64,000 nt of DNA from Escherichia coli (GTDB lineage: Bacteria > Pseudomonadota > Gammaproteobacteria > Enterobacterales > Enterobacteriaceae), in NCBI RefSeq assembly GCF_024502345.1, contig NZ_JALDNN010000001.1, one strand, 5' to 3'. Both the position numbers and the translations under genes were made by a program. The notes below the pieces were generated by a model. That model was not told the origin of the DNA, did no database searches, and saw only the letters and a list, made by a program, of their open reading frames with translations. Shown here in pieces: positions 23,333 through 56,784 of this stretch (the first letter of the stretch is position 1; each line of letters begins with the position of its first letter).

Positions 23333-23415
23333 AGGCCTGATAAGACGCGACAAGCGTCGCATCAGGCATTTGCTCCAGACGCCAGATGCGGCGTGAACGC
23401 CTTATCTGGCCTACG
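23333..23415. repeat. REP elements (BIME-type pair) downstream of moeB
   Basis: aggcctgataagacgcgacaagcgtcgcatcaggc and gccagatgcggcgtgaacgccttatctggcctac, typical REP palindromes. Confidence 0.8.
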
Positions 23416-27775: not shown

Positions 27776-28591
27776 ATGAGCGTAAAAGTTATCGTCACAG
27801 ACATGGACGGTACTTTTCTTAACGACGCCAAAACGTACAACCAACCACGTTTTATGGCGCAATATCAGGAACTGAAAAAGCGCGGCATTGAGTTCGTTGT
27901 CGCCAGCGGTAATCAGTATTACCAGCTTATTTCGTTCTTTCCTGAGCTAAAGGATGAGATCTCTTTTGTCGCGGAAAACGGCGCACTGGTTTACGAACAT
28001 GGCAAGCAACTGTTCCACGGCGAACTGACCCGACATGAATCGCGGATTGTTATTGGCGAGTTGCTAAAAGATAAGCAACTCAATTTTGTCGCCTGCGGTC
28101 TGCAAAGTGCATATGTCAGCGAAAATGCCCCCGAAGCATTTGTCGCACTGATGGCAAAACACTACCATCGCCTGAAAGCTGTAAAAGATTATCAGGAGAT
28201 TGACGACGTACTGTTCAAGTTTTCGCTCAACCTGCCAGATGAACAAATCCCGTTAGTGATCGACAAACTGCACATAGCGCTCGATGGCATTATGAAACCC
28301 GTCACCAGTGGTTTTGGCTTTATCGACCTGATTATTCCCGGTCTACATAAAGCAAACGGTATTTCGCGGTTACTGAAATGCTGGGATCTGTCACCGCAAA
28401 ATGTGGTAGCGATTGGCGACAGCGGTAACGATGCGGAGATGCTGAAAATGGCGCGTTATTCCTTTGCGATGGGCAATGCTGCGGAAAACATTAAACAAAT
28501 CGCCCGTTACGCTACCGATGATAATAATCATGAAGGCGCGCTGAATGTGATTCAGGCGGTGCTGGATAACACATCCCCTTTTAACAGCTGA
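27776..28591 (+). CDS. ybiV: HAD-superfamily sugar phosphatase YbiV
   Basis: 271-aa ORF, DMDGTF and GDSGND motifs; paralog of ybjI. Confidence 0.9.
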
Positions 28592-28736: not shown

Positions 28737-30008
28737 GTGGTTATAGCTTCTACTTTTACCAGCGACACATTGCCTGCCGATCACAAAGCAGCTATCCGTC
28801 AGATGAAGCACGCGCTGCGGGCGCAGCTTGGCGACGTCCAGCAGATCTTTAATCAGCTAAGCGATGACATTGCCACGCGAGTGGCTGAAATCAACGCACT
28901 CAAAGCACAGGGCGATGCCGTCTGGCCGGTGCTGTCTTATGCCGATATCAAAGCAGGTCATGTTACTGCAGAGCAGCGCGAACAGATTAAACGTCGCGGT
29001 TGTGCGGTGATAAAAGGCCATTTCCCCCGCGAACAAGCGCTAGGCTGGGATCAGTCGATGCTGGACTATCTGGACCGCAACCGCTTTGACGAGGTCTACA
29101 AAGGCCCCGGCGATAATTTCTTCGGGACGCTCAGCGCTTCACGTCCCGAGATTTACCCCATCTACTGGTCGCAGGCGCAAATGCAGGCCCGCCAGAGTGA
29201 AGAAATGGCGAATGCGCAGTCGTTTCTCAATCGTCTGTGGACATTTGAAAGTGATGGAAAGCAATGGTTTAACCCGGATGTGAGCGTCATCTACCCTGAC
29301 CGTATCCGCCGCCGTCCGCCCGGAACGACCTCCAAAGGTCTTGGAGCGCATACCGACTCCGGGGCGCTGGAACGCTGGCTGCTTCCAGCGTATCAGCGCG
29401 TTTTCGCCAACGTCTTTAATGGCAATCTGGCGCAATATGATCCCTAGCATGCGGCACATCGTACGGAAGTTGAAGAGTACACGGTGGACAACACCACCAA
29501 ATGTTCCGTGTTTCGGACATTCCAGGGCTGGACAGCGCTCTCTGATATGCTGCCTGGTCAGGGGTTGCTGCACGTTGTGCCCATTCCTGAAGCCATGGCG
29601 TACGTACTGTTACGTCCGCTGCTTGATGATGTGCCGGAGGATGAACTGTGCGGCGTAGCGCCCGGAAGAGTGTTGCCGGTATCAGAGCAATGGCATCCAC
29701 TGTTAATTGAGGCGTTAACCAGCATTCCAAAACTCGAGGCCGGAGACTCCGTCTGGTGGCACTGCGACGTCATCCATTCCGTTGCCCCCGTTGAAAATCA
29801 ACAGGGTTGGGGCAACGTGATGTACATTCCTGCGGCACCGATGTGCGAGAAAAATCTTGCCTACGCGCACAAGGTGAAGGCCGCACTGGAAAAAGGCGCA
29901 TCGCCGGGCGACTTCCCGCGCGAGGACTATGAAACAAACTGGGAAGGACGCTTTACGCTTGCCGACCTCAACATTCACGGTAAGCGAGCGTTGGGCATGG
30001 ATGTTTGA
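28737..30008 (+). pseudogene. ybiU: ybiU (DUF1479 protein) with an in-frame TAG at 29445-29447
   Basis: ORFs 28737-29447 and 29484-30008 are in the same frame with no other stop between them; together they give a ~423-codon product. Confidence 0.75.
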
Positions 30009-30061
30009 GAGTTAATGGAAGTGAATTGATGTGGGATTAAGAAAATCGATTCGACGTTACT

Positions 30062-30210
30062 CAGATTGCTGACAAGTGCGCTTTCTTAATGCCTGATGCG
30101 GCGTTAACGCCTTATCTGGCCTACAAAGTCCTGCAGATTCAATATATTACAGGTACTGCGTAGGCCTGATAAGCGTAGCGCATCAGGCTATTTTGCATTT
30201 GTCATCAGCC
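30062..30210. repeat. composite REP/BIME cluster, paralogous to 55240-55390
   Basis: REP palindromes gcctgatgcggcgttaacgccttatctggcctac and gtaggcctgataagcgtagcgcatcaggc with shared flanking blocks. Confidence 0.8.
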
Positions 30211-30211
30211 G

Positions 30212-30240
30212 CCGTCACCCCGACAGTATCGGGGTGACGG
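30212..30240 (-). terminator. stem-loop immediately downstream of ybiT
   Basis: cgtcaccccg...cggggtgacg perfect hairpin. Confidence 0.5.
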
Positions 30241-30248
30241 ATAATCAC

Positions 30249-31841
30249 TTACTCGATCCCTTTACTACGCAGGTAATCTTCGTAATTACCGCTAAAGTCG
30301 ATCACGCGTTCCGGGGTGATTTCCAGAATGCGGGTCGCCAGGGAGCTTACGAACTCACGGTCGTGTGAAACAAAGATCAGCGTGCCCTGATACAGTTCCA
30401 GCGCCATGTTCAGTGACTCGATGGATTCCATATCCAGGTGGTTGGTCGGTTCGTCCATGATCAGAATGTTCGGCTTCTGCATCATTAACTTACCAAACAG
30501 CATCCGCCCTTTTTCCCCACCGGAAAGCACTTTAGCTGGCTTTTTGATGTCGTCCTGGCTGAACAGCAAACGACCGAGAATGCTGCGTACCGCCTGCTCG
30601 TCATCGCCTTCCTGCTTCCACTGACTCATCCATTCGAACACGGTCAGATCATTTTCAAACTCATATTCGTGGTCCTGGGCGTAGTAACCAATGCGCGCGT
30701 TTTCAGACCATTTTACGGTGCCGCTGTCCGGTTGCAGATCGCCCACCAGCGTTTTCAGCAGCGTTGATTTACCGACGCCGTTGGTACCCAGTACCGCAAG
30801 TTTTTCACCGACCTCCAGCAGCAGGTTGAGATTTTTAAACAGTGGACCGTTATCAAACCCTTTGGTCAGACCTTCCACTTCCAGCGCGTTACGGAACAGT
30901 TTCTTATCCTGTTCAAAACGGATGAACGGGTTCTGACGGCTGGAGGCTTTCACCTCTTCCAGTTTGATTTTATCAATCTGGCGCGCGCGCGAAGTTGCCT
31001 GGCGAGATTTCGAGGCGTTGGCGCTAAAGCGGCTAACGAAAGATTGCAACTCAGCAATCTGCGCTTTCTTCTTGGCGTTATCGGCCAGCAGACGTTCACG
31101 CGCCTGGGTCGCCGCCGTCATGTACTCATCGTAGTTACCCGGATAAACGCGCAGCTCGCCGTAATCCAGATCCGCCATGTGGGTACAGACCATGTTAAGG
31201 AAGTGACGGTCGTGCGAGATGATGATCATGGTGCTGTCACGCTCGTTCAGCACCTGTTCCAGCCAGCGAATGGTGTCGATGTCGAGGTTGTTGGTCGGTT
31301 CGTCGAGCAGGAGAATATCCGGATCAGCAAACAGCGCCTGCGCCAGAAGCACACGCAGCTTCCAGCCAGGAGCAACTTCACTCATCGGGCCGTAGTGCTG
31401 TTCCACTGGAATTCCCACGCCAAGCAACAATTCACCGGCGCGAGCTTCCGCAGAGTAACCGTCCATTTCGCCGTATTTAACTTCCAGATCGGCCACTTTA
31501 TAGCCGTCTTCCTCACTCATTTCCGGCAAAGCATAGATGCGGTCACGCTCCTGCTTCACTTCCCACAACTCTTTATGCCCCATGATCACCGTATCCAGCA
31601 CAGTGAACTCTTCAAAGGCAAACTGATCCTGACGCAGCTTACCAATGCGCTCGTTGGGATCGAGGGAAACGTTACCCAAAGTCGGCTCTAAGTCGCCGCC
31701 GAGGATCTTCATAAAGGTGGATTTACCACTACCGTTCGCGCCAATCAGGCCGTAACGGTTGCCGCCGCCAAATTTGACGGAAATGTTTTCAAACAACGGC
31801 TTACTGCCGAACTGCATGGTGACGTTACTGGAAACTAACAC
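30249..31841 (-). CDS. ybiT: ABC-F family ATPase YbiT (two ABC domains, no membrane domain)
   Basis: 530-aa ORF with two Walker A motifs and two ABC signature motifs. Confidence 0.92.
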
Positions 31842-41343: not shown

Positions 41344-42062
41344 TTGAATTTAAAAACGTCTCCAAGCACTTTGGCCCAACCCAGGTGCTGCACAATATCG
41401 ATTTGAACATTGCCCAGGGCGAAGTCGTGGTGATTATCGGGCCGTCCGGTTCCGGTAAATCGACCCTGCTGCGCTGCATCAACAAACTGGAAGAAATCAC
41501 CTCCGGCGATCTGATTGTCGATGGCCTGAAGGTTAACGATCCGAAAGTTGACGAGCGCCTGATTCGCCAGGAAGCAGGTATGGTGTTCCAGCAGTTTTAC
41601 CTCTTCCCGCATCTGACGGCGCTGGAAAACGTCATGTTTGGTCCGCTACGCGTGCGTGGCGCGAACAAAGAAGAGGCGGAAAAACTGGCGCGTGAGCTGC
41701 TGGCGAAAGTCGGTCTGGCAGAACGTGCACATCACTACCCTTCCGAACTTTCTGGTGGTCAACAGCAGCGTGTGGCGATTGCCCGCGCGCTGGCGGTGAA
41801 GCCGAAAATGATGCTGTTTGATGAACCGACTTCCGCTCTTGACCCGGAACTGCGCCATGAAGTGCTGAAGGTTATGCAGGATCTGGCTGAAGAAGGGATG
41901 ACGATGGTGATCGTGACCCACGAAATCGGTTTTGCCGAGAAAGTAGCTTCGCGGCTGATCTTTATCGACAAAGGCCGGATTGCGGAAGATGGCGATCCGC
42001 AGGTATTGATCAAGAACCCGCCGAGCCAGCGCTTGCAGGAATTTTTGCAGCACGTCTCTTAA
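41340..42062 (+). CDS. glnQ: glutamine ABC transporter ATP-binding protein GlnQ
   Basis: 240-aa ORF, GTG start overlapping glnP stop; Walker [10 protein letters not shown]. Confidence 0.92.
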
Positions 42063-49994: not shown

Positions 49995-49997
49995 TTC

Positions 49998-50120
49998 GTA
50001 GGACGGATAAGGCGTTTACGCCGCATCCGGCAACAGATGCCTGATGCGACGCTACCGCGTCTTATCAGGCCTACAAAATCCGAACCGTTGGACGGATCAG
50101 GCGTTTACGCTACGTCCAGC
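49998..50120. repeat. REP element cluster (three REP-like palindromes) downstream of ybiJ
   Basis: gtaggacggataaggcgtttacgccgcatccggc, gcctgatgcgacgctaccgcgtcttatcaggcctac, ggacggatcaggcgtttacgctacgtcc. Confidence 0.8.
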
Positions 50121-50194
50121 ACAAGTATTTCCCTGTCTGTTTGCCGACAGACGCATATGCTCTAACCCTCATTGATCCTATGTTACCCTTGTTT

Positions 50195-54705: not shown

Positions 54706-55188
54706 ATGCCCGTTCGAGCACAAAGGATCCAACACGTCATGCAAGACACCATCATAAATTTCTACAGCACCAGCGATGACTACGGTGATTTTTCTAACTT
54801 TGCCGCCTGGCCCATCAAGGTTGACGGGAAAACCTGGCCCACCTCAGAACACTATTTTCAGGCACAAAAATTCCTTGATGAAAAATACCGCGAAGAGATC
54901 CGTCGGGTTTCTTCCCCTATGGTCGCCGCACGCATGGGGCGCGATCGTTCTAAGCCTCTGCGTAAAAACTGGGAGTCGGTCAAAGAACAGGTGATGCGAA
55001 AAGCACTTCGCGCTAAATTCGAACAGCATCCAGAACTGCGTGCGCTCTTGCTGGCAACCGCGCCCGCAAAACTGGTTGAGCATACGGAAAACGATGCTTA
55101 CTGGGGAGACGGTGGTAATGGTAAGGGCAAGAATCGACTGGGCTACCTTTTAATGGAGTTGCGCGAACAATTGGCTATAGAGAAGTAA
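54706..55188 (+). CDS. ybiA: N-glycosidase YbiA (DUF1768)
   Basis: 160-aa ORF. Confidence 0.85.
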   Translation: MPVRAQRIQHVMQDTIINFYSTSDDYGDFSNFAAWPIKVDGKTWPTSEHYFQAQKFLDEKYREEIRRVSSPMVAARMGRDRSKPLRKNWESVKEQVMRKALRAKFEQHPELRALLLATAPAKLVEHTENDAYWGDGGNGKGKNRLGYLLMELREQLAIEK

Positions 55189-55239
55189 CGTCTCGGTGGC
55201 TTATGGGCGGTAAAACAGATAAATTTTTTCCCGTGTTCT

Positions 55240-55390
<151 letters not shown>

Positions 55391-55419
55391 TGATGCCGGG
55401 CATAGCCCGGCATAAAAGA

Positions 55420-56784
55420 TTACTGCGCAGCGGTAGGTTTACGCGGACGGCGGCGACGTTGTTGTTCGCCTGCCGGTTTGGCATCGCCGAGGCGGCGAGA
55501 CGGTTTTTCTGCAGGTTTCGCGCTTGCAGATTTTGCGCCACCTTCCCCACGGCGTGGTTGCTGTTGACCGCGACCACCACCTTGCCCACGACCGCCGCCG
55601 CCACGTTGCTGGCGACCGTTCTGGATCGGTTCGGCTTTGATTGACGGGTCCGGCTCATAGCCCGGAATCGCAATGCGCGGGATCTCTTTTTTCAGCAGTT
55701 TTTCGATATCACGCAGCAGTTTGTGTTCATCAACACACACCAGCGACAACGCTTCACCGGTAGCAGCCGCACGACCGGTACGCCCGATACGGTGGACATA
55801 ATCTTCAGGTACGTTTGGCAGTTCATAGTTGACGACGTGCGGCAGCTCTTCAATATCCAGGCCGCGCGCAGCGATGTCAGTTGCCACCAGTACACGAATA
55901 TCGCCCGATTTAAAATCAGCCAGCGCACGAGTACGCGCACCTTGCGATTTATTGCCGTGGATCGCCGCACTACGGATGCCATCTTTATTGAGCTGTTCAG
56001 CCAGATGGTTAGCGCCGTGTTTGGTACGGGTAAACACCAGCACCTGCTGCCAGTTCCCTTTCCCAATCATGTGCGACAGCAATTCGCGTTTGCGTTTCTT
56101 ATCGACAAAGTGAACGTGCTGGGTCACCTGATCAGACGCGGTATTGCGGCGTGCCACTTCGATTTCCAGCGGGTTGTGCAACAGTTTTTCCGCCAGGGCT
56201 TTAATATCATCAGAGAAGGTCGCGGAGAATAACAGGTTCTGGCGCTTCGCAGGTAGTTTTGTTAACACGCGACGGATATCGTGGATAAAGCCCATGTCGA
56301 GCATGCGGTCAGCTTCATCGAGGACGAGGATTTCAACCTGATCCAGCTTCACTGCATTTTGATGTTCCAGGTCCAGCAAACGTCCCGGCGTTGCCACCAG
56401 CACATCAACGCCGCCGCGCAACTTCATCATTTGTGGGTTAATGCTGACACCGCCAAACACCACCAGCGAACGAATGTTCAGGTATTTGCTGTAATCACGG
56501 ACGTTTTCGCCAATCTGTGCCGCCAGTTCACGGGTCGGGGTAAGAATGAGCGCACGTACCGGACGACGCCCTTTGGCGTGCGGCTGGCGAGTGATCAGGT
56601 GTTGCAACAGCGGCAGCGTAAAGCCCGCTGTTTTGCCGGTGCCGGTCTGGGCGCTAGCCATCAGGTCGCGGCCTTCCAGCACCGCAGGGATCGCCTGCTG
56701 CTGAATAGGGGTGGGTTCACGGTAACCCTGCTCGGCAACGGCGCGCAGGATATCAGGGCTTAAACCCAAAGAATCGAAAGACAT
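55420..56784 (-). CDS. rhlE: ATP-dependent DEAD-box RNA helicase RhlE
   Basis: 454-aa ORF; Q motif, Walker [13 protein letters not shown] box, basic RG-rich C-terminal tail. Confidence 0.94.

Follow-up and report, generated by a model that had tools for sequence, protein, structure and literature searches.

The two similar intergenic segments at positions 30062–30212 and 55240–55392 of the analyzed window, a 64,000-nucleotide stretch of Escherichia coli DNA, are with high probability members of the BIME-1 (RIB/RIP) family, non-coding and non-autonomous repeats of ~152 bp that occur in Escherichia and related bacteria. The BIME-1 of Gilson, Bachellier and Hofnung is reportedly the same element as the RIB of Boccard & Prentki (1993) and the RIP of Oppenheim (1993). 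With this identity the segments represent an already known kind of element and not a new module, and since both are present in E. coli K-12 the feature as such is already known. A comparison of the family members showed that they are gained and lost as whole units, and that new copies lie at the foot of a palindromic, terminator-like hairpin, which is duplicated on both sides of the unit.

The window is a part of the E. coli chromosome, inverted relative to the region at 829–860 kb of K-12 MG1655 with an identity of 98.6–99.3%. Unit 1 (30062–30212; plus orientation, 151 nt) lies between the stop codons of ybiU (28737–30008, plus strand) on its left and ybiT (30249–31841, minus strand) on its right, and unit 2 (55240–55392; plus orientation, 153 nt) between those of ybiA (54706–55188, plus strand) on its left and rhlE (55420–56784, minus strand) on its right, confirming the location of both between convergent genes that the initial annotation had described. 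They are the only two full-length BIME-1 copies in the window, share the same orientation at a distance of 25.2 kb and form one unit per locus, with no tandem array. In K-12, the corresponding two loci contain unit 1 with 97.3% and unit 2 with 99.3% identity, and the RefSeq annotation of MG1655, examined for REP and RIP labels, shows no repeat_region features. Other repeats within the window were a REP cluster in the ybiE/ybiJ spacer (49995–50121), containing a match to Rfam naRNA4 (CssrE) of 78.4 bits at 50001–50071, a solitary y-type REP at 23381–23414, and a direct repeat of 208 nt with 71% identity (793–1000 versus 27776–27983). The copy at 27776–27983 is the start of ybiV (sugar phosphatase), and the pair probably reflects paralogous HAD-phosphatase genes.

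Both units are built from the same parts in the same order, namely an outer motif, an inverted REP ending in CCTAC, a linker of 35–36 nt containing ATTCAATATATTR, a REP beginning with GTAG, and a second outer motif, all read on the plus strand. In unit 1, the outer-left motif (CAGATTGCTGACAAGTGC...; 30062–30090), conserved across 45–60 listed family copies, is followed by the inverted REP (30091–30124, ending in GGCCTAC), the L linker (30125–30159), the REP with its 5′ GTAG (GTAGGCCTGATAAGCGTAGCGCATCAGGC; 30160–30188) and the outer-right motif TATTTTGCATTTGTCATCAGCCGC (30189–30212), the latter delimited, like the unit as a whole, by family conservation. For unit 2, defined by family alignment, the inverted REP spans 55270–55303, the L linker 55304–55338, the REP with its GTAG 55339–55367 and the outer-right motif, placed by family alignment and block comparison, 55368–55392. 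In PU nomenclature, we take the inverted REP of unit 1 to be of the y type and its GTAG-REP to be of the z1 type. The linkers harbor a predicted IHF-like core, ATTCAATATATTA at 30137–30149 and ATTCAATATATTG at 55316–55328, which on the basis of sequence agrees in both units at 12 of 13 positions with WATCAANNNNTTR, the IHF consensus.

All blocks that the initial annotation had listed for the two segments were found in both, at the right places and in the right order. Pairwise alignment of the segments runs end to end over ~150 bp with 84% identity (BLAST E = 9e-40), the individual blocks being identical to 72% (outer-left), 91% (inverted REP), 73% (linker), 93% (REP) and 83% (outer-right). The claim that the similarity extends beyond the REP palindromes was borne out by the parts outside of the REPs, as outer motifs and linker together are 75% identical, whereas 2000 segments drawn at random from the window averaged 49% and did not exceed 58%, indicating that the linkers are related. 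Likewise, the 15-mer ATTGCTGACAAGTGC within the outer motif is found exactly at 30065–30079 and 55243–55257, with three matches in the window at up to two mismatches versus 0.17 expected by chance, and the pattern GGCCTACAAA-N9-ATTCAATATATT exactly at 30118–30148 and 55297–55327 and nowhere else in the window, where none would be expected. The reading as composite REP/BIME units takes the specific form of the BIME-1 architecture, with linker and outer motifs conserved at the family level.

The linker also matches a catalogued RNA family, raising the alternative that the units are small-RNA genes of the ES036/CssrF type and that the similarity on either side of the linker is part of an sRNA locus. 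With cmscan, Rfam RF02751 (ES036/CssrF) aligned to 55304–55346 on the unit 2 linker with 37.9 bits, above the gathering score of 37.6, and to 30125–30167 on the unit 1 linker with 34.0 bits, just below this score (E = 3e-5); REP elements are also reported to be widely transcribed (PMC4550694). However, the cmscan alignment showed that the 43-nt model, with its consensus AAAuUUGUGCAAAUUCAAUAAAUUGCAGGAaAUACGUAGGCCU, is the BIME-1 linker followed by the start of the REP (GTAGGCCU), and it thus matches a multi-copy repeat. Conservation continues for ~55 nt past the model on both sides, symmetrically as expected of a DNA element, and a scan of both intergenic regions yielded no promoter-like sites. 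The sRNA-gene reading was rejected on these grounds and is in our view very unlikely, the ES036 model corresponding to only 43 of the ~152 nt of the repeat and being filed as an sRNA gene and not as a repeat.

The initial annotation mentioned gyrase and IHF as proteins bound by BIMEs. Gyrase binding and cleavage belong to BIME-2 (PMC2817692, PMC6379681), whereas IHF is the protein associated with BIME-1, the L linker of which is reported to hold an IHF site (PMC3333891). An IHF ChIP-seq paper mentions neither REP nor RIP nor BIME (PMC3333857). To regard the units as BIME-2-type gyrase-binding sites, acting as topological insulators, would agree with their REP type, which is the one preferred by gyrase in BIME-2, and with their position between convergent genes, where positive supercoils accumulate (PMC6379681). 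Yet the z2 REP, the short S linker and the tandem array of BIME-2 are all absent from the two units, each of which has a z1-type REP and a 35-nt linker in a single unit; the enrichment of gyrase cleavage is reported for BIME-2, and gyrase cleavage sites are even slightly under-represented at IHF sites (PMC6379681). Lacking the defining BIME-2 features, the units were not assigned to this class, and we regard the gyrase reading as extremely improbable.

To place the two BIME-1 units within their family, one genome per species was scanned with a pattern consisting of the linker core and GTAGG, yielding at least 120 loci. Seeded by the exact linker-core pattern, this sample represents one sub-population of copies, and it is drawn largely from E. 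albertii, from Pseudocitrobacter and from divergent lineages that bear an 'E. coli' label. Among the matches listed, those in unrelated taxa were chance matches without REP context, and the outer blocks of the window units were common to all enterobacterial ones (E. albertii, Pseudocitrobacter, divergent 'E. coli'). The conservation profile of 58–60 copies among the matches listed rises sharply at CAGATTGCTGACAAAGTGCGC and drops after TTTGTCATCAGTCTC, i.e. it goes up at CAGATTG and down after CATCAGYCKC, giving the boundaries of the full unit in the window as 30062–30212 and 55240–55392; the exact family ends in the listed copies are CAGATTG...CAGTCTC. An alignment of 45 copies among the matches listed resulted in a consensus of 152 nt with imperfect terminal inverted repeats, where 12 of the first 20 and 11 of the first 16 positions are shared with the reverse-complemented right end; the corresponding values for the window copies were 10 of 16 (unit 1) and 8 of 16 (unit 2). 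Counting copies by genome search, we found that megablast with unit 1 as the query matched 5425 of the 5426 complete E. coli genomes, typically at several places in each (median 17). One E. albertii locus (L010:6934–7527) contains three BIME-1-like units in direct tandem, in the first two of which AACGCCTTARCAGAC takes the place of the right outer motif before the next CAGATTG, an unusual arrangement for a subtype described as single-copy.

Units 1 and 2 are 87.5% and 83.7% identical to the 45-copy consensus and only 77.8% identical to each other, and the respective other window copy ranks 32nd (for unit 1) and 28th (for unit 2) of 44 listed copies; they are thus independent family members and not products of a local duplication. 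A duplication or gene-conversion pair of this 25-kb region, as might be suspected for the only full-length copies in the window, with their shared orientation and the exact 15-mer in the outer motif, is contradicted by this consensus distance and rank and is barely conceivable in view of the same outer motifs in E. albertii and Pseudocitrobacter copies, the many places in E. coli genomes, and the E. albertii ortholog of unit 2 (L013), which at 93.5% identity is the closest to unit 2 among the listed copies. The term paralogous, used for the pair in the initial annotation, accordingly holds in the sense of two copies of one dispersed repeat, and not in that of a local duplication. We infer that the insertions of both window units are old, and that the one of unit 2 predates the split of E. 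coli and E. albertii.

The two loci vary considerably between strains. At the highly variable ybiU–ybiT junction, the arrangement of the window is found in 2686 of 5426 genomes. The O157:H7 spacer (L002:830–870) shows a 73-bp collapse between the GCCTGAT motifs of the two REPs, corresponding to window positions 30097–30169, which left one hybrid REP and kept both outer motifs. In strain '4', IS621 directly follows the GTAG of the unit 1 REP (between 30163 and 30164), and the alignment to strain A2 ends at 55342 (between 55342 and 55343), after the GTAG of the unit 2 REP, with an IS621 transposase gene beyond. IS621 (IS110 family, transposase WP_000399648.1) hence occupies the same post-GTAG position in both units (L003:1804–3100, L132:2003–3300), and about 7 of 40 evenly spaced matches at the ybiU–ybiT locus break at this very point (between 30163 and 30164). 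Strain BH100 lacks ybiU and carries the BIME directly after ybiV, and in strain PEC395 the BIME is absent and a GH31 gene adjoins ybiT instead; the left side of unit 1 is the boundary of a presence/absence polymorphism of ybiU. Both junctions are also replacement hot spots, affecting window positions 28737–30061 (L004, L005) and 54706–55239 (L127, L128), and on the rhlE side either an espX2 island (in strain 9000 and in an O157:H7 strain) or a RelE/ParE toxin island replaces ybiA together with the BIME. The two units mark recombination-prone and IS621-prone spots at the ybiU–ybiT and ybiA–rhlE junctions.

Presence or absence of the whole unit became apparent at the family level upon comparison of orthologous spacers, at glnQ–ybiO and yhaH–yhaJ. 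The glnQ–ybiO spacer of K-12 (L001:16603–16741) holds an extra BIME-1-like unit of 139 bp flanked on both sides by a CTTAA direct repeat, for which the alignment of K-12 with the window revealed the empty site CTTAA at 42058–42062, overlapping the glnQ stop codon. This unit differs in its linker, whose IHF-like core is of the TTTTAATAAGTTG type, and lacks the outer motif normally present on the right.

Further copies of the family are flanked by much longer duplications. Aligning the left with the right flank of each copy gave a score above the 99th percentile of the cross-copy scores in 22 of 60 listed copies, compared to 0.6 expected. In the listed copies, the duplicated segments are direct repeats of 13–29 bp, locus-specific and GC-rich, which abut CAGATTG and CAGTCTC, respectively, at an offset of zero. 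Perfect duplications among the matches listed were exhibited by several Pseudocitrobacter copies as well as by some copies of E. coli and of the divergent E. coli-labelled lineages. The duplicated segment corresponds to a complete stem-loop, with at most two unpaired nucleotides at either end, in 16 of 17 cases among the listed copies, and a stable hairpin abuts 44 of 60 listed copies versus 18 of 60 control windows located 50 nt further out (p = 1.7e-7). Examples of loci with a duplicated hairpin are L094:5142–5351, L131:325–525 and L021:4009–4200, and of empty sites L126:368–410, L130:325–350 and L129:330–358.

Pairs of filled and empty sites show the same arrangement at three of three loci, with one hairpin at the empty site and, when filled, a hairpin, the 152-bp unit and a second hairpin. 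At purT–eda, filled in the divergent strain SCPM-O-B-8794, the duplication is perfect and comprises 29 bp; this site is empty in the sampled E. coli, where 29 of 29 chromosomal matches listed are ~181 bp shorter, equal to the sum of the 152-bp unit and the 29-bp duplication. At ysgA–metE, empty in E. coli and filled in E. albertii, the duplication measures ~20 bp with two mismatches, and at yhaH–yhaJ, empty in E. coli ATCC 11775 and filled in E. coli JNEC-KY203, it is a perfect one of 22 bp. The gldA–yijF locus (L101), considered as a fourth pair, is filled in essentially all E. coli genomes and therefore uninformative. The suggestion of a larger mobile or recombining unit is supported by this presence/absence polymorphism and by the target duplications at other family copies. 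Around the two window copies, neither local alignment nor an end-anchored search detected a target duplication above the null, the scores of 5 and 6 lying at the null mean.

The window units do have a neighboring hairpin, as a strong one follows each of them at a distance of 0–1 nt, again in line with the initial annotation. For unit 1 it is a locus-specific, GC-rich stem of 12 bp at 30212–30240, 8 nt from the ybiT stop codon, with RNA minimum free energies (MFE) of −25.0 (plus strand) and −25.6 kcal/mol (minus strand) and z-scores of −5.8 and −4.4. For unit 2 it is a locus-specific stem of 9 bp at 55393–55413, adjoining the rhlE stop codon, with an RNA MFE of −17.5 and −19.4 kcal/mol and a z-score of −3.6 for the former value. 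In both cases the strong hairpin is present on the gene-proximal (right) side only, reaching −21.7 and −17.1 kcal/mol within the 32-nt flank. As canonical intrinsic terminators these hairpins were rejected, with a U-tract absent on either strand and no call by the terminator scan. In strain EE72d, where another island replaces ybiA and the BIME, rhlE keeps its hairpin, which is therefore a feature of the locus and not part of the repeat. In strains without ybiU, another hairpin occupies this place beside ybiT; comparing the hairpin at the ybiT stop codon in the window (30212–30240, GTCACCCCGA...TCGGGGTGAC) with that in L004:1615–1650 (CAGTAGCCCTGA...TCAGGGCTACTG), the sequence differs with the strain background and a stem-loop is kept in the same position. 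The hairpin after each unit belongs to the flank and is specific to its locus; sites of this kind are where the BIME-1 family inserts.

We further analyzed the folding of the units themselves. As single-stranded DNA, unit 1 is predicted to form a single long foldback with an MFE of −33.3 kcal/mol (z-score −5.8), in which end pairs with end and REP with REP, leaving the IHF-like core in the loop. The foldback of unit 2 is weaker and not significant (DNA MFE −25.4 kcal/mol, z-score −2.1). The consensus structure of the alignment of listed family copies likewise pairs the inverted REP with the downstream REP, as for unit 1. Covariation in the family alignment gave almost no support for this REP pairing, with compensatory changes in 2 of 22 pairs, as the family is too conserved.

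These observations can be combined into a possible route of insertion. In this proposal, a hairpin or cruciform would be extruded and joining would take place at its two feet, with the stagger given by the length of the palindrome, and the same reaction on non-palindromic DNA would result in short duplications such as the 5 bp at glnQ–ybiO and the 6–7 bp seen at a few other copies. Extrapolating from the family relatives, each window unit may have inserted beside the 3′ hairpin of ybiT or rhlE, the distal hairpin copy having been either lost or never made; the likeliest history would favor its loss. BIME-1 may then constitute a true insertion element with the ends 5′-CAGATTG...CAGTCTC-3′, which targets palindromic, terminator-type hairpins in the spacers between genes and generates a target-site duplication comprising the whole stem-loop (13–29 bp, differing in length and sequence from locus to locus), an interpretation that we put forward tentatively and hold with less than even confidence. 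As the enzyme that moves REPs and BIMEs, the literature proposes the REP-associated Y1 transposase (TnpA-REP or RAYT), and transposition of the IS200/IS605 type leaves no target repeats (PMC3333891, PMC2817692). As Y1 transposition leaves none, this enzyme would either act differently here or another pathway would be involved. The long hairpin duplications suggest a poor fit to a simple single-strand Y1 mechanism and instead a staggered joining at the two feet of the hairpin, and this signature speaks against the RAYT single-strand model as a complete account of BIME-1.

Once in place, the units may act in two ways suggested by the literature. IHF may bind and bend the linker between the REPs, and the REP stem-loops in convergent read-through transcripts could serve as barriers to 3′-exonucleases or as Rho-dependent attenuators. 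If hairpin targeting holds true, it would explain why transcription units carry RIB/RIP elements at their 3′ ends, and work on the still unsolved movement of REP-type repeats would gain a concrete target that can be assayed. We found no description of the hairpin duplication in the accessible literature, which did not comprise the primary papers of the 1990s; together with the exact ends it is possibly new. Should it be absent from the older literature as well, the 40-year-old question of the spread of REPs and BIMEs would become testable, with a defined hairpin as the target and a defined junction as the product.

Several known systems share part of these properties. REPINs (Bertels & Rainey), moved by RAYT/TnpA-REP, are likewise non-autonomous, present in high copy number and composed of inverted GTAG-REPs pairing into one long hairpin, whereas BIME-1 has in addition a conserved 35-nt linker with a protein site and conserved outer motifs of 25–30 nt. 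In contrast to Y1 transposition of the IS200/IS605 type, with no target duplication (PMC3333891, PMC2817692), the BIME-1 family exhibits duplications of 13–29 bp. BIME-2 has REPs of the same superfamily and is also extragenic and polymorphic, but there y and z2 REPs occur with short linkers, in tandem arrays and at sites of gyrase cleavage (PMC3333891, PMC6379681), a description that does not fit the two units. Like BIME-1, the Correia element and classical MITEs are ~150 bp long and lie between genes, have inverted repeats at their ends (imperfect in BIME-1) and an IHF site (IHF-like in BIME-1) in the center, are co-transcribed with neighboring genes and contain no transposase gene (PMC3184786). 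Classical MITEs generate a short target duplication of fixed length, in contrast to the variable one of the BIME-1 family, which equals the whole palindrome. According to a review, REPs display no MITE signatures (PMC3184786); as to such traits, imperfect terminal repeats are present in the consensus and in the window copies, and a target duplication in 22 of 60 listed copies and in neither of the two window copies.

The closest correspondence is with BIME-1 as described, which consists of y and z1 REPs and a long L linker with an IHF site in single copy (PMC3333891, PMC2817692, PMC1187871, PMC2892488), measures ~140 bp, is present or absent among isolates (PMC1187871) and bears the name RIP in the K-12 annotation (PMC2892488). 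The accessible descriptions of BIME-1 contain neither its exact termini nor its imperfect terminal inverted repeats, and they do not mention that a whole target hairpin is duplicated. We found no difference between BIME-1 and the window units, which share with it the inverted y and z1 REPs, the long conserved L linker with a sequence match to the IHF consensus, the single unit of ~140–150 bp, the extragenic position at the 3′ ends of transcription units and the presence or absence among isolates (PMC3333891, PMC1187871, PMC2892488). The practical value of this comparison lies in the correct annotation of the two segments as BIME-1 repeats of the catalogued type, rather than as an sRNA gene, a new regulatory module or the result of a local duplication.
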